A DNA stretch of 64,000 nucleotides, taken from positions 89,712 through 153,711 of IMG/VR virus record IMGVR_UViG_3300046318_000491; one strand, written 5' to 3'. The translations under genes were made by a program, and so were the position numbers. The DNA comes from a virus. Below, piece after piece: positions 41,199 to 51,199 of this stretch (position 1 is the stretch's first letter; each line of letters begins with the position of its first letter). Under the pieces are notes generated by a model. It was given only the letters and a program-made list of their open reading frames with translations, searched no databases and was not told the DNA's origin.

Positions 41199-42091
41199 GA
41201 TTCTACCTTAGCATACAAAGAAGTCAAGTGGTGCATCGACATAGTTGGACGAATTTTTCAAAAATTTGTGGAGGCCGATTTTAAAAAAGGGGGGTCTTCA
41301 GGATGGGAGGAATTTGTTGTATTTGCAAACGGATATGGTATAGTAGGCGTCTACTGCTTTTGGCGTGTGAGTGGGTAGCAGCTATATATCGACCTCTTCG
41401 AAAACGTTTCCTGATTTCGGTCTGAGAGTTGGTCGAATCTTCCTACGAAATCCGTGACGGACTGCCTTGGGTCTTGCCTCTCTTCTCTACCAGCCAGTTC
41501 CCCCCCTCAGCCCTCCAATACAAACATCTGATTACACATCAAAGATTACGACAGCCCTCGACTCCTCTGCTCATGACTTCAAACAAGTAGTCATCTACTT
41601 CATCACAAGTGCTATGCCACTAACATCTAACGAGCATAGAACAACATTCATTCAAAGTAACCCGGATCGAAATCTTCTCAAGAAACTTTCAATGAATGTC
41701 ATCTAACAACGACAGAAAAAATAAATACCTACACCACCCGACCAAATCTCTGACGACATCAAACATCTACACGACTAGCAAGGCTATGCTCATCATTTCC
41801 ACAAGAACTGGGAACAATGCCCATGCTCTCTCTGCTCTGCTCACATACGCCCGCCTAAGCCCGCTACGCTTATGCTCTTATTTATTCAATGAATAGGGGG
41901 TTGAACTGCTATGACTGACCAGCCTGAACTCTCTAGGACTACCCAACGGCAAGCACATACGAGCCAGCAAAGCCCGTGTTAGTCCACGCACGCCCGTGTA
42001 GTCCTAACTCCTCTACAACGCCCACACAAGGCTTACGGCAGGCAAAAGAAAACCCCCACCAGCGAACTGGCAGGGGCTTTCGTTTGAACTG

Positions 42092-42253
42092 TTAGAAGGT
42101 GCGGAAGGTGAAGGTGCGACCGTCTGTCATTAGAGACTTAGTTGCCTCGATGATTTCAATGGCACGCTTGACTGAGTTAGCCTCATAGGTTGGCTGTGAA
42201 GATAGGGTTCCGTCTGCTTCGTAAACGGTGATTTCGATTCCAGTGAAACGCAT
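42092..42253 (-). CDS. Microprotein (53 aa), paralog of 43160-43330
   Basis: Start revised to MRFTGIEI (RBS GAAGGA). Confidence 0.7.
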   Translation of the reverse strand: MRFTGIEITVYEADGTLSSQPTYEANSVKRAIEIIEATKSLMTDGRTFTFRTF

Positions 42254-42463
42254 TTTGTTTTTCCTTCTGTAGCCCTCCACCCCCTTGGCTTCCTGACTAC
42301 ATAAGTAGTCTATCACACCAATACCAAAAAACGCAAATCAAATCCCGTGCCTCACCCCCGTGTCTGACTTTCGACAGAAAAAATAAATACCCCTCGGCGA
42401 GCGCGAAATCCGAACGGCAAAAGAAAAAACCCCCGCCGAAGCGAGGGTCTTTCAGAAATCTAT

Positions 42464-42634
42464 TTAGGAATGGTCTAACTTCCAACCAAGCCAAGTGAAG
42501 CCAACGGCGAGCGCAAACAATAGAAACTCCACAATGGCGGGCGCACCGCCTACGGCATAGCCGAACAGCCAGACAAATCCCAAGCCTACGGCAAGCCCAT
42601 AGGCGACCACAGCGAACTCTCGGTAGGCTTTCAC
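42464..42634 (-). CDS. Two-TM membrane microprotein (56 aa)
   Basis: Read by hand: MKAYREFAVVAYGLAVGLGFVWLFG...; GTGA coupling with the upstream ORF. Confidence 0.6.
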   Translation of the reverse strand: MKAYREFAVVAYGLAVGLGFVWLFGYAVGGAPAIVEFLLFALAVGFTWLGWKLDHS

Positions 42635-42753
42635 TTCTCCGACCGCCTACGAGCCAGATACGCCTCATGCTGGGCATGGCGGAAAGTGTAGAACGCTTTA
42701 TCGCTCAACCACGCCCAAAGGCGATAGACAGCCGTGTGATAAGTCTTACGCAT
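42631..42753 (-). CDS. Microprotein (40 aa)
   Basis: Read by hand: MRKTYHTAVYRLWAWLSDK...; TAATG coupling. Confidence 0.55.
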   Translation of the reverse strand: MRKTYHTAVYRLWAWLSDKAFYTFRHAQHEAYLARRRSEK

Positions 42754-42947
42754 TATGAACCTGCCTTTGCTTGACGCTTTGCCTGACCTGCCAACTTACG
42801 CTTTACATAGCGACTGACTTCGACCTCAACTGGCTTAGGCTTACGGCACTCGCCACAAACCTGCTTTGATGAGTAGTAGTAGCCAACCTCTGTGTGAAAC
42901 TGTTCACCGCAGTTGTAGCAGTGAAGCCAAACCTTGTTGCCTGACAT
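42753..42947 (-). CDS. Zinc-ribbon microprotein
   Basis: CYNC...CGEC with a basic tail; RBS AAGGGG. Confidence 0.7.
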   Translation of the reverse strand: MSGNKVWLHCYNCGEQFHTEVGYYYSSKQVCGECRKPKPVEVEVSRYVKRKLAGQAKRQAKAGS

Positions 42948-43159
42948 CTGAACCCCTTACCCCAATCCCTCTGACTGGATACTCCCAGTCTACTCTAACC
43001 CTCTGACAAAACGCAACACCTCTCCGCGTGTGTCGCCGTGCCCCCGCCCGTGCCAACGCTGACAGAAAAAATAAATACCGCACGCCAGCGAAAAAATCGC
43101 CAGCCAGCGAGCAAAGAAAAAACCCCCTGCCTCTCGGCAAGGGGTTAGTTCGTTTACTT

Positions 43160-43330
43160 CTATCGGTGACCTACAACGCTAAAGGTCATAGTATTACCGC
43201 TACCTGCGATAAGTTCCTCGGTACGTTCGATAATCTCCTGTGCCTTGTCCCACGAGTGGCACTCGTAGACTGGCTCAATGTAGTTTCCGTCTGGCTCTGT
43301 AATCTTGATTACAAGTGAGTTGATAGTCAT
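43160..43330 (-). CDS. Microprotein (56 aa), paralog of 42092-42253
   Basis: Read by hand: MTINSLVIKITEPDGNYIEPVYECHSWDKAQEIIERT...; RBS AAGGGGG. Confidence 0.65.
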   Translation of the reverse strand: MTINSLVIKITEPDGNYIEPVYECHSWDKAQEIIERTEELIAGSGNTMTFSVVGHR

Positions 43331-43342
43331 TCGTGCGCCCCC

Positions 43343-43666
43343 TTACAAGGTCTTTAGGTAGTCGTATTCGGTGGTCTTTAGAGTTGCCTCGTAAGCCTCT
43401 GGGAATAGCGACTTCATTAGTTCACGGTCAAAGTGTGTGTTAGCACCGTTCACAACACGAACGGCAACTACGCCCTCAACAACGCCAGCCTTTGCCTCGC
43501 CTAGAGCCTCACGCAAGATAGCCTCTGCCTTTGACTTTAGGGCCTTAGCCTTTGCCTCTGCCGCTTTTGCTTTGTTGAAAGTGGTGAGAGCCTTGATAGC
43601 CTTTGCTGAAAGTTCTACGCCCTCTACGGTCTTGTTGCTCTTTACTGCTACAACTGTGTTAGCCAT
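43343..43666 (-). CDS. Hypothetical protein, similar to 49179-49559
   Basis: Start revised to MANTVV (RBS AAGGGG). Confidence 0.7.
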   Translation of the reverse strand: MANTVVAVKSNKTVEGVELSAKAIKALTTFNKAKAAEAKAKALKSKAEAILREALGEAKAGVVEGVVAVRVVNGANTHFDRELMKSLFPEAYEATLKTTEYDYLKTL

Positions 43667-43886
43667 TTGGCTACCCCTTATCTTTTCTACCAGCCTTGTT
43701 GCTGATGTATTCAGCATACAGGCATTACTTCCGAAAGTCAAATCCAAATCCACAAATCTTTTCCCGTGTCGTCGCCCGCCGGGTTGTCGGCAGAAAAAAT
43801 AAATACCCATACCCGGTAGCAAAATAAATCCGAACGGCAAAGAAAAAAGGCTGAGCATTTCTGCCCAGCCTCTCGTCTTGAAACTT

Positions 43887-44234
43887 CTACGCTAACGCCC
43901 TCAAGTTCGCACCCGCACTCGCAAGGTTGCGAATCATTCGAGCGTTGTCCTCGGTGAGTCCTAGAGTGTCGCCGTCTTCGTCTGTCCCACCCGTAAACAC
44001 TACGCTGCCCTGAATGTCGTAGTTCCCACCAACGGTAGCAAAGAAAACAGTTCCTATTGCGTTTGGTTCTGGTTCGTTCCTCAAGAGAAACTCCTCGTTC
44101 ACCCACATAATCAAGTTCTCGTTGATGTCGATAGCCTCGATCCAGCCGTCTACGCCTGCTTGTAGTTCCTCTAGAGAAACTCCAGTCTCCGTGACATTGT
44201 AGTTTGCGTCTACTACTAGAGCCAACTTTTCCAT
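43887..44234 (-). CDS. DUF3846-like protein
   Basis: LEELQ..VDGWIE...MWVNEE...N.IG...I.G.VVFTG; start revised. Confidence 0.7.
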   Translation of the reverse strand: MEKLALVVDANYNVTETGVSLEELQAGVDGWIEAIDINENLIMWVNEEFLLRNEPEPNAIGTVFFATVGGNYDIQGSVVFTGGTDEDGDTLGLTEDNARMIRNLASAGANLRALA

Positions 44235-44508
44235 TTGAATCCCCAATCCATAAACCACTCTGGCTTATGTTCTAAGTTTACCAATACCCACTGACATTTT
44301 CAACTTCTCACCGTGCGTGTTTCTTCGTTCGTTCGTTGTTGCGGTATACGCAGAAAAAATAAATACCCACCGCACGCACCAAAATTATTCGAGCGAGCAA
44401 CAAAAAACCCGATAGCACAATCACTATCGGGTCTCTCGGAGAAAGAAACGAGGGGGCGTTTCCGTTATCTCTGTCGCTACCAAAGGGGGATAAGGTAGCG
44501 AGTTCTAT

Positions 44509-44736
44509 TTAGTTGTTGGGGTCGTAGTCGGCGTAGTAGTCGTCTCGCAAGTCTTCCTTGCTAGGCACTTCGACTTCTAGGACTGAACGGCACTTAGGAC
44601 ATTCGGCTGTCACAGTAGTTCCGTAGTCGTCTGTCTGACCGTCTAGTTCCATTTCTTCGTCGCAGTGTGAGCAGAAAAACCAAGCGGTGTAATCGGTAGA
44701 GTCAATCCCTGACCCTTTCATTGAAAACCCAGGCAT
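44509..44736 (-). CDS. Zinc-ribbon microprotein
   Basis: CSHC...CPKC. Confidence 0.7.
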   Translation of the reverse strand: MPGFSMKGSGIDSTDYTAWFFCSHCDEEMELDGQTDDYGTTVTAECPKCRSVLEVEVPSKEDLRDDYYADYDPNN

Positions 44737-44888
44737 TAGTGGTTCATCTCAAATCCTGCTGAATACTCGACGCCCGCTGGAGTTGGGTCGTAGCAATCCT
44801 GACATACGCCACCTGCTACATAGTATTCGGCAACCATTGGGTTGCTCTCTGTAATCTTGCTCTCGCAGTTTGGACACTTCTCTGACAT
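44736..44888 (-). CDS. Zinc-ribbon microprotein (50 aa)
   Basis: Read by hand: MSEKCPNC...CQDC...; RBS AAGGGG. Confidence 0.65.
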   Translation of the reverse strand: MSEKCPNCESKITESNPMVAEYYVAGGVCQDCYDPTPAGVEYSAGFEMNH

Positions 44889-45119
44889 CTGAAACCCCTT
44901 GTCTGCCAACCCCTTGTTGGCTACAAGAACTACATTACAGGATACCTACGACAAACGCAAATCGAAACGCCGAAAACTTTTCCGTGTCGCCAACCCCGCG
45001 AGCGCGTTCACAGAAAAAATAAATACCCCTCGGCAGACGAGAAACTCGGCGAGCAAGGCAAAAAGAAAACCCCCGCATTTCTGCGAGGGTTGTCTTGAAA
45101 CTGTATCTGATTTGGCGTA

Positions 45120-45344
45120 TTACTCGCCTACGATTCTGTCTATCAAGCGTGAGACCTGCGGTGAGAATGTAAGCATTAGGGCAATGATTACGCCTAGCCC
45201 CAAGCCATTCTGGAAAACTTCTTCACTTGAAACGGTAGGCTCTGCCCCTGCGATTACCAACCATAGGTAGGCAAGCGTGTAAACCCCTGCGACTACTGGA
45301 ATAGAGATAATCCCTACAACTGCTCTGCGAATGTAAAACTTCAT
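45120..45344 (-). CDS. Two-TM membrane microprotein
   Basis: Hydrophobic helices; own promoter and RBS. Confidence 0.7.
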   Translation of the reverse strand: MKFYIRRAVVGIISIPVVAGVYTLAYLWLVIAGAEPTVSSEEVFQNGLGLGVIIALMLTFSPQVSRLIDRIVGE

Positions 45345-45422
45345 TTTGAATCCCCTTTTCTAGTTAGGCTTTCTAACTACTTACAGTTTACCCTACAACT
45401 TTTTGAATGTCAAGCATTTCTT

Positions 45423-45587
45423 TTAGTAGTTCTCATTGACATACTCAACCAGTTCATCTTGCGACTTACCAGCACGAATCAAGTCCTTGACTTCTTCGTC
45501 TTCGGCAAGCAACTCAAACATAACCGTAGTCTCACCTGACAAGACAATCAACTTCTCGAACAACGATAGTTCTCTATTTAGAATCAT
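45423..45587 (-). CDS. Microprotein (54 aa)
   Basis: Start revised to MILNREL (RBS AAAGGGG). Confidence 0.65.
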   Translation of the reverse strand: MILNRELSLFEKLIVLSGETTVMFELLAEDEEVKDLIRAGKSQDELVEYVNENY

Positions 45588-45774
45588 TTGAATCCCCTTT
45601 GTTTGGATAGTCATACTTTATCACCAAGCACCGACATTTTCAACTTCCAACGAACCCGTGTCATCTCGCTGTCGCCGGCAGTCAGAAAAAATAAATACCC
45701 TCGGATTTCGAGAAAAAGATTTCGCGCAAACGCAAAAAAAAACGCCTGCCTTTCGGCAAGCGCTTCTTTTTAGT

Positions 45775-45903
45775 TCAACTACATAACTGTCCAGCAAACC
45801 AACTATCAAACTCGCTCTCGCAGTCCTCGCATAAAGGGTGAACGGTTGTTATGTCTTCGACTTCTATCGCCGTGTCACATTGGTAACACTCTGTCTTAGC
45901 CAT
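45775..45903 (-). CDS. Zinc-ribbon microprotein (42 aa)
   Basis: Read by hand: MAKTECYQC...LCEDC...; TAATG coupling. Confidence 0.6.
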   Translation of the reverse strand: MAKTECYQCDTAIEVEDITTVHPLCEDCESEFDSWFAGQLCS

Positions 45904-46151
45904 TAGTCAATACCCCAACAATCGGCACACTTCGGAACAGTAAACCCTGAACCATTTGCCTTGTTGTTCTCGTAGTGGAGGTGGAGGCTCTCGTCTAGCA
46001 CAATCGTCTTATCACATTGACGGCACGACACTTCGTAAGTGTTCTCAGTCATCATTCGTGAACGGTTATACATCTTCGAGATTTCGTAGTTGATTTCGTC
46101 ATCTGACATTTCGACGGCAGACTTACTCAAGTTCGTAGTCCGTGTCATCAA
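45903..46151 (-). CDS. Zinc-ribbon small protein
   Basis: CRQC...CADC; start uncertain. Confidence 0.6.
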   Translation of the reverse strand: MMTRTTNLSKSAVEMSDDEINYEISKMYNRSRMMTENTYEVSCRQCDKTIVLDESLHLHYENNKANGSGFTVPKCADCWGID

Positions 46152-46404
46152 GCCAAGTTTCTAGACGGTGTCCGTCGATTACTGCCCACGCTGGAGCGGC
46201 AGTCAATCCCTTGTAACCCACGCCATCTGGCATACTAATCAAACGATTCGGCTCGCCATTGTTGTAATGCTCAATCGCTTCAACGCAAACTGGAACCATT
46301 GACAACGGCACAGGTGGAAAAAAGTTGCCACGCAAGTGCCAAGTGATTTGTTCTTCTAGTGGAATACCAGTTTCGGCGATTCCTTCGGCATACATTCTAC
46401 CCAT
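46123..46404 (-). CDS. Hypothetical protein
   Basis: 93 aa with RBS AGGGG and a promoter. Confidence 0.7.
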   Translation of the reverse strand: MGRMYAEGIAETGIPLEEQITWHLRGNFFPPVPLSMVPVCVEAIEHYNNGEPNRLISMPDGVGYKGLTAAPAWAVIDGHRLETWLDDTDYELE

Positions 46405-46677
46405 TTACTTCCCCTAATCTTTCGGTGTAGCCCTATTGCTACATCTGTAATCTTACTCTACTTCCAACGACTTCGCAACTCTCGTTCGTTGTGTGTCCCG
46501 CAGCTCGCAGAAAAAATAAATACCGCCTACACAAACAAAAATCGAAAAGCAAAACGGTAAAAGAAAAAGTGGTATCAGACGGGGGGTCCAATACCACTTC
46601 TCTTTGAGGCGAGCGAAAGGGGGATAACTCTCGCCTCCATCAGTTAGGGAGGTTACTCGACCTAACTAACTTCTACT

Positions 46678-47013
46678 CTACACTAAAGTTTTTGAAAACT
46701 CGTCGTGTTCAACATCTTGATACGTGTAAACGCCTGTGTCTGCGTTTACGAATACAGTTGGAGCATCTGCCCACTCCGAGCCAGTCACCTTGCCTGTGTA
46801 AATCCCGAATGACAGTTCGCCATCATAGTTGCCAATCTTTGCGAACTCGTAGAAAATCTGTGCGGTGAGATAACTAGGGTCGCCAATACGCCCTGAACGC
46901 TCTAGCACGCTACGAACAGCAAGAATGTTGTCATCGCCTGACCAATGTCCATAAAATACAACTGGAATCTCGAACTGCTCTGACGAGACTTCGATAAATG
47001 CTCTGTTTCCCAT
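46678..47013 (-). CDS. Hypothetical protein
   Basis: Start revised to MGNRAFI; Y.HW.G and D..YLTA motifs. Confidence 0.7.
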   Translation of the reverse strand: MGNRAFIEVSSEQFEIPVVFYGHWSGDDNILAVRSVLERSGRIGDPSYLTAQIFYEFAKIGNYDGELSFGIYTGKVTGSEWADAPTVFVNADTGVYTYQDVEHDEFSKTLV

Positions 47014-47226
47014 TTGAATCCCCTTATCTGTAACCAATCTGGCTACATACATAGATTACCATGCTCATGCGAGAAAGTCAAACCTCGCTCACTTCAAACG
47101 AATCGTGTGTTCGCACGTGCGGCAGCGCGGCAGAAAAAATAAATACCACCGGCAACGACGCAAATTGTTTCGCAAGGCATAAAAAAACTCCCCGCCTTTC
47201 AGCGAGGAGTTCTTTCGTTTGAAGTT

Positions 47227-47619
47227 CTATACTAACTCTGGCTCTGGCTCAAAGTCACGAACCAAAACATTTCGAGTAAATACGCTCGAACCCCAGTTCA
47301 AGTCGTGTCCTACTGCCTCTGCCTCAAGTTCAACGGAAGTTCCTGAACGCTCACCGTTATCCCAATCACGCACACGCAATACGCCCTGAACCATAATGCG
47401 GTCGCCCTTGTTCACCGAACCAGAAACATTTATAGCAAGTTGCTTGAAAGCGGTAATCGTATACCAGTTGGTCTCGCCATCTACCCACTTGTCTAATGCT
47501 CTGTCGAATCGGCGGTTGCTACTTGCTAGTCGGAATGATGTAATCGCCAAGCCCTCGGCTGTGACGATGTGTCGTGGTGTAGTTGCTACTAGTCCAGCAA
47601 CGCTAATGGTCTCTGCCAT
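47227..47619 (-). CDS. ssb: Single-stranded DNA-binding protein (actinobacterial type, short C-terminus)
   Basis: OB-fold motifs SFRLAS..R.FD....WVDGETNWY...LA.NV..S..KGDR..V.G.L...E.EA..VG.DL. Confidence 0.9.
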   Translation of the reverse strand: MAETISVAGLVATTPRHIVTAEGLAITSFRLASSNRRFDRALDKWVDGETNWYTITAFKQLAINVSGSVNKGDRIMVQGVLRVRDWDNGERSGTSVELEAEAVGHDLNWGSSVFTRNVLVRDFEPEPELV

Positions 47620-47971
47620 TTTTCCCTTTCAGTAGATTACTGAATTTCATCTACATAAGAATCTTACCAGACTGCTACGACAAATACAACTTACAAACAA
47701 CTCCGCGTCTGCTCGCTCGACGGAAGTTGTCAGAAAAAATAAATACCCTCTTGCGGTAAAAAAATAATCCCCAGAAAAAACTAAAAGACCAGAAAAGCAC
47801 AATGCGTTATCTGGTCTTGAAGTTTGACCCCAGGGTCTGTGTTTAGCGACACTGCTGTCGGTTTCCCTAACATAGTAGCGAAGTTTTTAGGCGAAGAAAT
47901 AGAGTCTAGAATACTCAATCACCGCAACCCACTCACCGACCTCCGTGGTTCAATGTGTTAGGCAAGTCTAT

Positions 47972-48091
47972 TTAGTTTTCGTCGTCGTGAGAGAAATACT
48001 TATTGGAACACTCAACGCACATACCAAGTTCTTCGGCATGAACGTCGGCTTCAATCATCTCGCCACATACGTCGCAAGGCAACTTACTCAT
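47972..48091 (-). CDS. Zinc-ribbon microprotein (39 aa)
   Basis: Read by hand: MSKLPCDVC...MCVEC... Confidence 0.6.
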   Translation of the reverse strand: MSKLPCDVCGEMIEADVHAEELGMCVECSNKYFSHDDEN

Positions 48092-48308
48092 CTTCGCTGA
48101 ACTCATCTAGAGCGTCGCGTGCCACGCTCCAAGTCGCCCCCATGTCGCGGAGCAAATCCTTTTCTTCCAAGTAGTGTTCCTGAATGAACTCAATGGCAAG
48201 TTCCAATGCGTTCACCGCACTCTCGGTAACTACCTCTAGTTCAATCTCGGTGTCTACTATCGAACTGATAGCGGCACACAAGTTCAGTTCGTCCTGACGC
48301 TTGCTCAT
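48084..48308 (-). CDS. Acidic hypothetical protein
   Basis: 74 aa with promoter and RBS. Confidence 0.65.
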   Translation of the reverse strand: MSKRQDELNLCAAISSIVDTEIELEVVTESAVNALELAIEFIQEHYLEEKDLLRDMGATWSVARDALDEFSEDE

Positions 48309-48473
48309 TCTCTTACCCCTTTCTTAGGTAATCTCACTTTACCATAACCCTCGGACAAAATACAAAACATTCTTCCCGTGTTTTCCGCGAGCGCGAATGT
48401 TGTCAGAAAAAATAAATACGACCTACGGCAAAAAAAACGCCGACCAAAAAAGTCGGCGTTCGTTTTTTGTTTG

Positions 48474-48770
48474 TTAGTGCGAAATCAAATCTGCGTATTC
48501 ATCTACACGCTTCAACAAATCTTCTGCGGTGTTTGGAATGTCCAACCCAGCCAGTCGCATGCTTGTCTTCATGACCAAATCTGCGGTGCTAAGTCCGAGA
48601 GCGAGAGCAAGATTCTCAATCACTTCTGATGAGGCTTCTTTTTGCCCTCGTTCGACTTCTGACAAATACCCCAGAGCGATAAACCCTGATGTGCTCAAAT
48701 CTCGTAGCGTCTTCTTTTTGGCGGTGCGTTGCTCACGCAAGACCTCGCCCAATGCTTCACGAAATAACAT
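48474..48770 (-). CDS. XRE-family HTH regulator, ClgR-like
   Basis: LFREALGEVLR..R....TLRDLS....IALGYLSEVERGQKEASSE closely matches actinobacterial ClgR-type regulators. Confidence 0.85.
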   Translation of the reverse strand: MLFREALGEVLREQRTAKKKTLRDLSTSGFIALGYLSEVERGQKEASSEVIENLALALGLSTADLVMKTSMRLAGLDIPNTAEDLLKRVDEYADLISH

Positions 48771-48986
48771 TTACTTCCCTCCCTTGCGGTGCTTGTCCAA
48801 CGGCAGACCTGCTTTGCGTAGTTGCGACTTCAAGTTCAACACGCCACGAGCGTTAGATGGCGTGCTGGCAGAGTAGAAACGCTCGCCAGTCGGTGCTGTC
48901 CAGCATAGGTGGTCGTTCTTTGTGCGCTCAACAGTCCAGCCAAGTTTCTCAGCCAAGACCCTAAGTTGTTTGATGTCTTTTCTCAT
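48771..48986 (-). CDS. HicA-like small protein
   Basis: L..LAEKLGW.VERT.N.H.....P.G......TPS pattern; start revised. Confidence 0.6.
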   Translation of the reverse strand: MRKDIKQLRVLAEKLGWTVERTKNDHLCWTAPTGERFYSASTPSNARGVLNLKSQLRKAGLPLDKHRKGGK

Positions 48987-49178
48987 CATTCCCCTTTTCG
49001 TGATGTATCTCATCACTAAGACCATTCTACTCTAGACCCCTGACATTTTGGAATACCCACGCCAAAAGTTTTCGTGTCTGGTCGAACCCTCCAGAAAAAA
49101 TAAATACCTGCCCTGCCAAAAAAATCGGGGCAAAAAAAAAACGCTGACGATTTCTCGCCAGCGTTCTTTTCGGTGTTT

Positions 49179-49559
49179 TTAGAGAATGTCAATCCTCAAA
49201 GTTGATTCCCCTGCGCCACGCTCGATGGTGTAGCGAGGCTTGATGATGTCGTAAATCTCTGGCATCTCCAACTTCAAAGCCTCCCAGTCGAATGACGCTG
49301 ATGACTGGACAACCTTGACGCTAATCAGACGCTTGCCCTTTGCGTCTGTGCCAATCAGGGTGGTGGCAGTCTTGCCCACGAAATCTAAAATAGCGTCTCG
49401 TGCTGTATCCCCAAGTTCCTTGGACTGCTTGGCAATGTTGCGTGCCTCGCGAAGCGTGTTCACTTCGGTCTGAATCTTGCGAGGTAGGACAAGCAAGTTG
49501 TCCTTGGTGGTGCTGGTAATGCTGGTGGTCGCCTTAGCAACCTTGGTGGTGTTAGCCAT
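49179..49559 (-). CDS. Hypothetical protein, similar to 43343-43666
   Basis: Start revised to MANTTK (RBS AGGAGG). Confidence 0.7.
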   Translation of the reverse strand: MANTTKVAKATTSITSTTKDNLLVLPRKIQTEVNTLREARNIAKQSKELGDTARDAILDFVGKTATTLIGTDAKGKRLISVKVVQSSASFDWEALKLEMPEIYDIIKPRYTIERGAGESTLRIDIL

Positions 49560-49721
49560 TTGATTTCCTCCTGTGTTTGTTATCAGTGGGTCTAACAAAA
49601 TCTACTTTACCAGAGTCCTCCGACATTTTACAAATCCAAGTGCGTGTTTCGTGGATTATTTTTTTCGGGGTCGGAAAGTTCCAGAAAAAATAAATACCCT
49701 CCGTCGAAAGAAAAACGAGGC

Positions 49722-50579
49722 TTACGCCTCGCTCTCCTCGTCCAATGTCGGGAACAACTTTTGACCCGTGTTCTCGTCCACGACCCAGAATGAATCTGAA
49801 TCCTCTGCGGTTAGTTCGTCCAACTTGTCTTGGGCAACTTCCCACGCACCCTCCGCTGAAGTTGCTCGCACAATGTATCGGCGTTCAACGACAACAACGA
49901 AGTCCGTTTCCTGACGAGGGCAGTCCTCGTAAAAGTCTTCCTCGTCTCCGTTTTCGCAAGCCCAGCAGGCTCGACCCAATGCGTCATAGTCGGCGTGGCT
50001 CTGCGGAATGTCCCACTCCCTCGTCATGATTAGCGACTTTGTAGGCACGCCGTTCTCGTCTACATCATCTCCGTCTGACGAAGTGAACTCCGCACCCCAG
50101 CCCTGTTCCTCCTCGCAAGAAAAGTCGAACGAAAGTTCTGGGTGCTGTCGAACGATAGCCGTGAATACCTGCTCTGGGATTCCCCATGCCGTTTCAAACG
50201 AGTAGCCCAAGTAAGCCGCTTTATCGTCCGTCATGTCCGTCAAGTTCACGCTACCAGCGTCCCACTTCACGCCCCAGTTGCTGACATTCCAGTCATACCA
50301 GCCGTCTGATTCGTGTTTCATAGCAATAGCCATGCGGTCTTCCATGCTCATCTCGGCGTATCCGTCTGGCTTGTAATCGCTCGCCCCGAAGTAGCGTGGC
50401 TTGTTCTCTGGTTCAATGAAGTTCCAGAACGATAGCGGTGAGGCGTTCTCGTCCTTGTATTCAAGCACGCCGTCCTCGCTGATTCCGCTAGGGGCAATCT
50501 TGCTCGCCTTATCACGAAACGCAATCAGGTCTTTAGCCGTGCCGTTTACATTCATGTTGTTGTAGACCCAGTTAGGCAT
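49722..50579 (-). CDS. DUF1281/YubB-like ferredoxin-fold protein
   Basis: MPNWVYN, WYDWN..NWGVKWD and FETAW..P motifs. Confidence 0.75.
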   Translation of the reverse strand: MPNWVYNNMNVNGTAKDLIAFRDKASKIAPSGISEDGVLEYKDENASPLSFWNFIEPENKPRYFGASDYKPDGYAEMSMEDRMAIAMKHESDGWYDWNVSNWGVKWDAGSVNLTDMTDDKAAYLGYSFETAWGIPEQVFTAIVRQHPELSFDFSCEEEQGWGAEFTSSDGDDVDENGVPTKSLIMTREWDIPQSHADYDALGRACWACENGDEEDFYEDCPRQETDFVVVVERRYIVRATSAEGAWEVAQDKLDELTAEDSDSFWVVDENTGQKLFPTLDEESEA

Positions 50580-50581
50580 TT

Positions 50582-50875
50582 CTACCACGCACCCTTGTCT
50601 ACATCAAGCCTGTGAGCGTCAATCATTTCATTCACAGTTTCACCTGCGAACATCTTGGCTACCGCCAATCGTGTTGCGAGTTCTGGCTCGTTCAACTTCT
50701 GTGCCAACTTCTCTGCCAACGCCAGCACCTTATACATGGTTGGGTCGCAGTAGCCATCTCGGCAGTAGTCCTCTACCAGCACGCCAATCGTGGCAAGTGC
50801 CATGCCAGCAATCTCGTGGTCGTCTAGTTCCATGTGGTCTAGTTCGTCCATGTTTCCTGAACAGTTATTACACAT
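50582..50875 (-). CDS. Hypothetical protein
   Basis: Start revised to MCNNCSG (RBS AAAGGGG). Confidence 0.65.
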   Translation of the reverse strand: MCNNCSGNMDELDHMELDDHEIAGMALATIGVLVEDYCRDGYCDPTMYKVLALAEKLAQKLNEPELATRLAVAKMFAGETVNEMIDAHRLDVDKGAW

Positions 50876-51199
50876 TTGAAATCCCCTTTCTTGGAATCGT
50901 ATTAGAACTTTACCATAGACTTCCGACAAATACAAACACCATTCGTTAGAAGTTTCTCTTTCTTTTTTGCGACTCGGAACTGACAGAAAAAATAAATACC
51001 ACCCCGCTGAAAAAAAATCCCGCTGAACTTTCCACGAGACCAATCCGTGTTCGTTGGAAGTGGAATGGCATTTTGTAATCGCACGAGCAAACAAAAAACC
51101 CCCAACAATCCGTGAGGACTATCGGGGGCTAAGTGGTGTCCACTAGCGAACCAACGAAAGGACGAACAAACGCAATCCGCTAGTGGAACTCTGCTTCCC

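Follow-up and report, generated by a model that had tools for sequence, protein, structure and literature searches.

We analyzed the final 64 kb of the 153.7-kb genome of an uncultured lake phage (IMG/VR record IMGVR_UViG_3300046318_000491, positions 89,712 to 153,711; this stretch of 64,000 nucleotides is hereafter the window, and positions are numbered from its first letter), focusing on two multi-hairpin RNA elements, the 44.4-kb and 46.6-kb modules, that end two small-gene cassettes and carry C-rich loops. The genome has a GC content of 47% and a short terminal overlap. It encodes two WhiB-family proteins, whose cellular homologues belonged to Actinomycetota in every case; the two genes thus place the host in Actinobacteria, at the level of the phylum and no finer. 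From ~41.7 to 55.4 kb every gene lies on the minus strand, so we read the hairpin elements as minus-strand RNA. This region is an array of expression cassettes marked by 15 copies of a 17-bp box, each cassette following the order terminator, box, sigma-70-like promoter, strong Shine–Dalgarno (SD) sequence, and then one to five small open reading frames (ORFs). No deposited phage genome matched the array in a megablast search. The genes and hairpins of the two cassettes are listed in Table 1. P0001, the gene ahead of the 46.6-kb module, had no match in Pfam or PHROG and falls in no known family.

Table 1. Genes, hairpins and candidate pairing regions of the two cassettes that end in three-hairpin modules (window positions).
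Feature	Position	Strand	Description
Gene P0001	46678..47013	-	111 aa; ORF with AUAAGGGGAUUC-type SD; the three-hairpin module is its 3′ untranslated region
HP0, 46.6-kb module	46642..46667	-	Outer stem variable, inner GAG-N4-CUC helix conserved; loop not C-rich
HP1, 46.6-kb module	46606..46637	-	8-bp stem plus closing pair; 12-nt loop UUAUCCCCCUUU
Intrinsic terminator, P0001 cassette	46559..46602	-	17-bp stem, six-C loop, then U-run
Gene P0002	44736..44888	-	50 aa, zinc-ribbon-like; opens the second cassette; SD ACAAGGGGUUUC
Gene P0003	44509..44736	-	75 aa, zinc-ribbon-like; last gene ahead of the 44.4-kb module
HP1, 44.4-kb module	44474..44501	-	8-bp stem; 12-nt loop UUAUCCCCCUUU, as at 46.6 kb
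HP2, 44.4-kb module	44439..44471	-	7-bp inner stem, loop CCCCCU, short outer helix
Intrinsic terminator, P0002-P0003 cassette	44401..44437	-	U-run; loop not C-rich
G-run SD region of P0001	47011..47027	-	Candidate pairing partner, from calculated duplexes
G-run SD region of P0002	44886..44902	-	Candidate pairing partner, from calculated duplexes

Both cassettes end in three stable hairpins, as a preliminary description of this DNA had proposed. On the minus strand, 44401–44501 folds at −44.4 kcal/mol (z = −6.6, with none of 200 shuffles folding as well) and 46559–46667 at −52 kcal/mol (z = −7.7). The reported identity of one 12-nt loop on otherwise unrelated stems also held: UUAUCCCCCUUU caps HP1 in each module, and its plus-strand 12-mer occurs in the whole 153.7-kb genome at 44482–44493 and 46616–46627 only. 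The C-runs comprise five residues in the HP1 loop and six in the terminator loop at 46.6 kb, and five in each C-rich loop at 44.4 kb. Among the other loops quoted in that description, CCCCCU and the six-C loop were recovered, but UAACCUC (HP0) does not belong to the conserved C-rich loops; what this hairpin keeps in relatives is an inner GAG-N4-CUC helix. The third hairpin of each module is GC-rich, directly followed by a U-run and placed at the end of the transcription unit, which identifies it as an intrinsic (Rho-independent) terminator. HP0, HP1 and HP2 have no U-run, and termination leaves them unaccounted for.

One reading would make the modules separate small RNA (sRNA) genes. We rejected it, since each module starts ~20 nt or less after an ORF stop codon, in the window and in relatives, and no stand-alone copy was seen among them; the modules are therefore 3′ untranslated regions (3′UTRs) of messenger RNAs (mRNAs). 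When the two full-length mRNAs were folded, the C-rich loops stayed unpaired. Matches to the 12-mer with at most one mismatch arose two or more times in 2 of 100 shuffles, in a comparison confined to this genome, so the shared 12-mer alone is only suggestive, and its solidity comes from conservation in relatives.

Homologues of P0001 were found at 60 loci, 8 of them on IMG/VR contigs and 52 on lake-metagenome contigs. In at least 12 distinct sequences, a P0001 homologue that ends its cassette is followed by the same layout: HP0 with the inner GAG-N4-CUC, HP1 with a UUAUCCCCCUUUC-type loop, and a terminator with a C5–6 loop. We aligned 11 divergent orthologous modules, for which RNAalifold predicted 31 pairs. 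Compensatory double changes supported 25 of these pairs (7 of 10 in helix 1, HP0; 8 of 9 in helix 2, HP1; 10 of 12 in helix 3, the terminator), compared with 15.5 ± 2 in shuffled alignments (0 of 500 reached 25) and 6–9 when the partners were slid. Paired cells made up 91.3% of the alignment positions concerned, versus 69% in shuffles, and the C-run of the HP1 loop was invariant across all 11 sequences. Within HP0, all 11 modules kept the inner GAG-N4-CUC helix and a UYGAG motif, with a variable outer stem.

The 44.4-kb module is conserved as well, after a P0003 homologue in contig L040, where neither loop differs and each stem shows compensatory changes (HP1 with its loop kept at 12 of 12 positions, HP2 with a C-G to U-A change). 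Counting both window copies, the identical 12-nt loop caps no fewer than four unrelated stems (window twice, L039/61, L050/52 and L040), at a protein identity of ~60–65%. Loops are thus kept in relatives while stems turn over, which was the conservation check set for the earlier reading. G-U pairs were found on the mRNA strand only, which indicates an RNA structure on the transcribed strand and not a DNA one. We accordingly rejected a DNA palindrome or operator, in view of the varying arms, the conserved centre and the strand-exclusive G-U pairs. Chance resemblance of the shared loop, on hairpins that do no more than terminate, draws on the marginal significance of the 12-mer within this genome, but conservation and covariation in dozens of relatives are strongly contrary, and we regard it as very improbable.

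A covariance model built from the 11 aligned modules, which we call R1, scored the 46.6-kb copy in the phage's own genome at 101 bits and gave a weak match to the 44.4-kb copy (13.6 bits, E = 0.06), the orthologues of which in L040 and L046 score 33 bits. In relatives, R1 recovered more than 20 copies outside the training set, downstream of other genes; partial relative genomes hold one to three copies each, all inside arrays and within a few kb. The 46.6-kb module combines the covariation-supported three-helix architecture with the conserved C-rich loop that characterize R1. Judged from sequence, the two elements are members of a conserved family of structured 3′UTR modules in the early-gene cassette arrays of a freshwater actinophage clade. 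The initial observation is confirmed, and much more strongly than the earlier reading could know: the covariation and the R1 matches bear out that phage RNA elements carrying C-rich loops on stems that covary form a family, as postulated.

We surveyed coding-strand hairpins with stems of at least 7 bp in the window array and the arrays of relatives, and found runs of four or more C in 59 loops versus runs of four or more G in 10. The C-run in 69 distinct C-loop hairpins is mostly five or six residues long, and the loops are 86% pyrimidine, with the consensus U-C5/6-U-U-U-C, that is, a U at −1 and UUUC after the C-run. The 3′ tail of bacterial 16S ribosomal RNA (rRNA) is CCUCCUUUC, and the C-rich loops equal this generally known tail with one U changed to C. 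Cassettes with C-loops have longer 3′UTRs than others (median 93.5 nt versus 43 nt, p = 1e-4). Among 103 array terminators, 49 have a tetraloop and 18 a loop with four or more C; the other dozen cassette terminators of this genome have GNRA or UUCG tetraloops. We also observed that the ordinary cassette terminators (42048–51130, minus strand; GNRA/UUCG tetraloops) have C-rich 5′ arms and G5 runs in their 3′ arms. C-loop hairpins show the reverse polarity, with a purine fraction of 0.64 in the 5′ arm versus 0.36 in the 3′ arm, so that loop and 3′ arm together form a long pyrimidine tract.

These features could belong to an element that serves 3′-end stability or termination alone. The extra hairpins would then block 3′ exonucleases or strengthen termination, and the C-loops would bind a protein or RNase, or represent a type of terminator loop preferred in Actinobacteria, without any pairing to SDs. 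Cleavage 5′ of cytidines, as reported for mycobacterial RNase E, counts for this explanation. Also in its favor are the canonical terminator that forms the last hairpin, the 18 of 103 array terminators in which the C-loop is simply the terminator loop, the lack of specificity of the loops for their own ribosome-binding sites (RBSs; see below), and an older hypothesis in which C-rich stem-loops serve as alternative structures for termination (PMC6486639). It leaves unexplained an invariant 10–12-nt pyrimidine loop on freely changing stems, a UUUC flank that mirrors the 16S tail, and the co-occurrence with an unusual class of G-run SDs in the same arrays; for most cassettes, moreover, a 43-nt UTR with a GNRA or UUCG tetraloop suffices. 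We consider this explanation possible but unlikely.

The G-run SDs mark the array genes. Of 22 array genes, 12 have a GGGG run in their SD window, compared with 10 of 124 genes elsewhere in the genome (rough gene calls), in keeping with the earlier statement that the loops are complementary to the SDs of this gene class. Across 205 RBS windows from the arrays of the window and its relatives (genes of the latter called by a crude script), GGG occurs in 120, GAAAGG in 49 and GGAGG in 11. Calculated duplexes with G-run SDs range from −9 to −16.5 kcal/mol for the loops and from −9 to −12.7 kcal/mol for the canonical 16S tail. The relation is reversed for GGAGG-type SDs (−5 to −7 kcal/mol for the loops versus −12.4 for the tail), and GGAC-type SDs reach only −3 to −7 kcal/mol with the loops. 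The SD of P0001 gives −10.3 kcal/mol with the HP1 loop and −9.6 with the canonical tail. The reported complementarity to AAAGGGGAUU-type RBSs is real but imperfect, since the 12-mer forms 7 bp, a bulge and 2 bp with them (~−11 kcal/mol).

Additionally, some loops follow the RBSs around them. In relatives, loop flavors track local RBS flavors, with UUGUCCC loops accompanying GGGACA or GGACAA (L038) and a UCCCUAUC loop accompanying GAUAGG (L062/L066). In a neighboring four-gene operon of the same array, the hairpin before the terminator (51140–51186) has a loop that is an exact 15-nt antisense of that operon's RBS, so placing anti-RBS loops at 3′ ends is habitual in this phage. This hairpin resembles the modules in its pre-terminator position and in a loop antisense to RBSs; it differs in being a perfect mirror of its own GGAC-type RBS, whereas the C-rich loops are generic and follow many unrelated genes.

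The operon hairpin counts for a second explanation, in which the module acts only in cis, folding back on the SD of its own mRNA to limit rounds of translation, perhaps as an RNase III site, with no role in trans. A precedent is the icaR mRNA of Staphylococcus aureus, whose 3′UTR carries a UCCCCUG motif complementary to its own SD and blocks initiation (PMC3868564). The element is part of the mRNA, intramolecular pairing is kinetically favored, and in some relatives (L048 and L046) the loop has a 9-bp match to the first RBS of its own cassette. SDs of the same cassette can indeed pair with the loops (6–7 bp, ~−10 kcal/mol calculated), but no better than the SDs of other cassettes. In a test of 40 C-loop hairpins, the strongest duplex with an RBS of the same cassette did not surpass that with RBSs of comparison cassettes from the same and other contigs (mean percentile 0.51–0.52, Wilcoxon p 0.76–0.97), and a cruder first version of the test, with different parsing, gave the same null result. 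We interpret this as the C-rich loops being generic G-tract binders. The two cassettes of the window, which differ in their SD flanks yet share the identical 12-nt loop, and the C-loop cassettes of relatives that have no G-run SD of their own (L060, L062 and L044 among them) likewise speak against a strictly cis-acting element, which we therefore judge unlikely. The modules resemble icaR in a C-rich 3′UTR motif that could pair with an SD on the same mRNA; they differ in their generic loops, which show no covariation with the RBS of their own cassette, in the multi-hairpin build that includes the terminator loop, and in the phage context.

The best available explanation, to which we give an even chance, is that the loops are anti-SD seeds acting on phage early mRNAs of the G-run-SD class. 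Each module consists of very stable hairpins displaying two or three single-stranded, pyrimidine-only loops with a C5–6 core, the last hairpin doubling as the intrinsic terminator. As mimics of the 3′ tail of 16S rRNA in which a C replaces one U, the loops would pair through Watson–Crick G-C pairs with the unusual GAAAGGGG-type SDs of array genes, in competition with the ribosome, and would leave GGAGG-type and GGAC-type SDs alone. Since the loops are generic and not tuned to their cassettes, the module would act both on its own mRNA and in trans on other early mRNAs with G-run SDs, the latter as a stable 3′ part of an abundant early transcript that would accumulate in the cell. Pairing in the cell would be repressive, and on balance negative feedback on the G-run-SD early genes, or their shut-off, is expected.

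Several observations weigh against anti-SD seeds, beyond the crude gene calls in the relatives. Pairing between loops and phage SDs is short (6–9 bp, ~−10 to −13 kcal/mol). The 12-mer has no perfect complement elsewhere in the phage genome, and a duplex scan of both strands returned no unique target: with ~150 sites at or below −11 kcal/mol, it pairs no less strongly than with the array RBSs, which are not at the top. The C-runs of the loops span five to nine residues and the SD G-runs mostly three or four, so loops and SDs are not mutually tuned. C-rich loops are present in only 2 of ~14 cassettes of this genome, and the relatives' C-loop cassettes without a G-run SD of their own count here as well. 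The use of GGGG SDs is higher on contigs with C-loops (0.27 versus 0.12, p = 0.03), a weak difference that ignores phylogeny. Overall, the earlier interpretation as anti-SD RNAs is partly supported.

Among the closest known systems is the 6C sRNA of Actinobacteria, which gives the mechanism assumed in the preliminary description, SD pairing by C-rich loops, a precedent in this phylum (PMC6486639). In Mycobacterium tuberculosis, 6C (B11) forms three loops. Two of them, L2 and L3, are C-rich and need no chaperone to pair with G-rich RBSs; such pairing was shown, for example, for the AGGGGGG of panD (PMC6486639). Real 6C RNAs that we examined from actinobacterial genomes form two tandem 10–13-bp hairpins with loops such as AUCCCCCCC. 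The phage modules share with 6C the host phylum, the three hairpins with C-rich loops 2 and 3, AUCCCCC-type loops, and tandem stable stems, the last of which is the terminator (HP0, C-loop HP1 and C-loop terminator at 46.6 kb). Tandem hairpins with loops of about six C are thus found in the phage, but an independent small-RNA gene with its own promoter is not. 6C is a stand-alone, single-copy chromosomal gene with sequence-conserved stems and C6–11 loops, whereas the phage module is a 3′UTR appendage on several mRNAs, with stems that are not conserved in sequence and C5–6 loops in U-rich flanks.

The family covariance model of 6C (RF01066) found nothing in the whole phage genome at E ≤ 10, so we rejected membership in 6C. 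R1 gave no hit on genuine 6C loci, and an Rfam scan of 40–56 kb at E ≤ 1 returned chance-level hits, none on the hairpins. Given a 6C-like layout and no detectable homology, we call the phage module an analogue of 6C. Among the actinobacterial genomes of the class that were sampled, RF01066 was found in 107 of 151, with 85 above the cut-off; this tally takes in five genomes flagged as unpublished (G023, G032, G040, G044 and G051), the sequences of which we did not use. Four of the genomes listed as having no 6C match (G018, G047, G063 and G077) are very small (1.4–1.7 Mb) and have very few first-look candidates. A streamlined freshwater host, if like these four, may have no detectable 6C of its own.

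The resemblance could also mean that the target is the host. As a host-directed mimic of 6C, the tandem C-loop hairpins would bind the G-rich 5′UTRs of host mRNAs in the 6C regulon as part of takeover. The layout agrees with 6C (three hairpins, C-rich loops 2 and 3, tandem 8–17-bp stems, the second a terminator), the host is actinobacterial and 6C is frequent in the sampled class, loops of C5–9 suit targets of G5–6 better than the phage's G3–4 SDs, and the modules are located in a putative early, host-takeover region. Against it stand the lack of homology in both directions of the covariance searches, the UUUC loop flanks, which fit the phage's own GAAAGGGG-type SDs, and the other loop flavors (UUGUCCC and UCCCUAUC), which track phage RBS flavors. 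We find host-directed mimicry rather improbable. The same low probability attaches to a combined version, a viral 6C analogue on early mRNAs that both hijacks the host 6C regulon and sets the time at which the phage's own early genes with G-run SDs are shut off; its host targets would be the G-tract 5′UTRs of replication, division and secretion genes.

RsaE/RoxS are multi-seed C-rich sRNAs that target G-rich SD regions. Several C-rich or UCCC loop motifs with G-rich SD targets are also described for LhrC of Listeria, in which one of the motifs is the terminator loop (PMC4132741), and for sX13 of Xanthomonas (PMC3771888). All of these are separate genes in cellular genomes and unrelated in sequence, whereas the carrier of the phage motif is an mRNA tail. 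A phage-borne RNA with a C-rich loop is known in SprX (RsaOR) of S. aureus converting phages, which pairs with the spoVG RBS and blocks ribosome loading (PMC4005690). SprX differs in being an independent sRNA gene of temperate Firmicute phages with a host target; the present modules are 3′UTRs in the early array of a 154-kb actinophage and are most complementary to phage SDs. Our literature searches turned up no description of modules like these, whether from actinophages or from the 3′UTRs of lytic phages.

We note several further features of the array. At the start of its 5′UTR, the P0002 mRNA has a 6-bp hairpin (44905–44921, minus strand) that holds AAGGG in its loop, just upstream of the AAGGGG SD; the hairpin is kept in L046, where an A-to-G change gives a G-U pair. 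This mRNA therefore has two G-tracts in its 5′UTR and two C-loops in its 3′UTR. The exact 17-bp box had 37 hits in IMG/VR, single and scattered, which we attribute to chance. Variants of the box (GTATTTATTTTTTCT and GTATTCATTTTTTC types) occur at the same place in relatives, intergenic after the modules (L038, L040, L041 and L046), indicating that the box is conserved in the clade despite the chance-level exact hits.

The last copy of the box (41713–41729, minus strand) lacks the usual promoter, SD and ORF downstream, and no minus-strand ORF of at least 30 aa lies between 41198 and 41878. This left edge of the array contains a stretch (41247–41371, plus strand, and 41497–41520) that has no convincing ORF and is 74–77% identical in two relatives (G007 and G008). 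A G6 run with promoter-like hexamers ahead of it is located there, together with a conserved extended −10 of the TGGTATAGT type on the plus strand. The minus strand has a G7 run at a distance of 220 nt, and both G-runs are among only 11 of six or more G genome-wide. The calculated pairing of the G6 site with the terminator loop of the 46.6-kb module is −20.1 kcal/mol. A plus-strand ORF there (41303–41425, 40 aa, with a G6 SD) was considered as a specific target and dropped as a gene, as its ATG is not conserved in relatives. The left-edge stretch could supply an RNA partner with a G-tract, or it could act as an antisense promoter.

To our knowledge, very little has been learned about the regulatory RNAs of lytic phages, and we know of none for phages of the very abundant freshwater Actinobacteria. 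The modules described here add an RNA family with strong covariation support, present in several copies per genome and linked to an unusual class of RBSs. If they did hijack the host 6C regulon, the modules would be an RNA-only device for host takeover in abundant freshwater actinophages. If the loops do act as anti-SD seeds, phages could tag a class of genes with a private SD flavor and switch it off via mRNA tails, and the chaperone-free mechanism of C-loops and G-tracts in Actinobacteria would extend to their viruses. Such loops would also offer actinobacterial synthetic biology a compact, portable translational off-switch.

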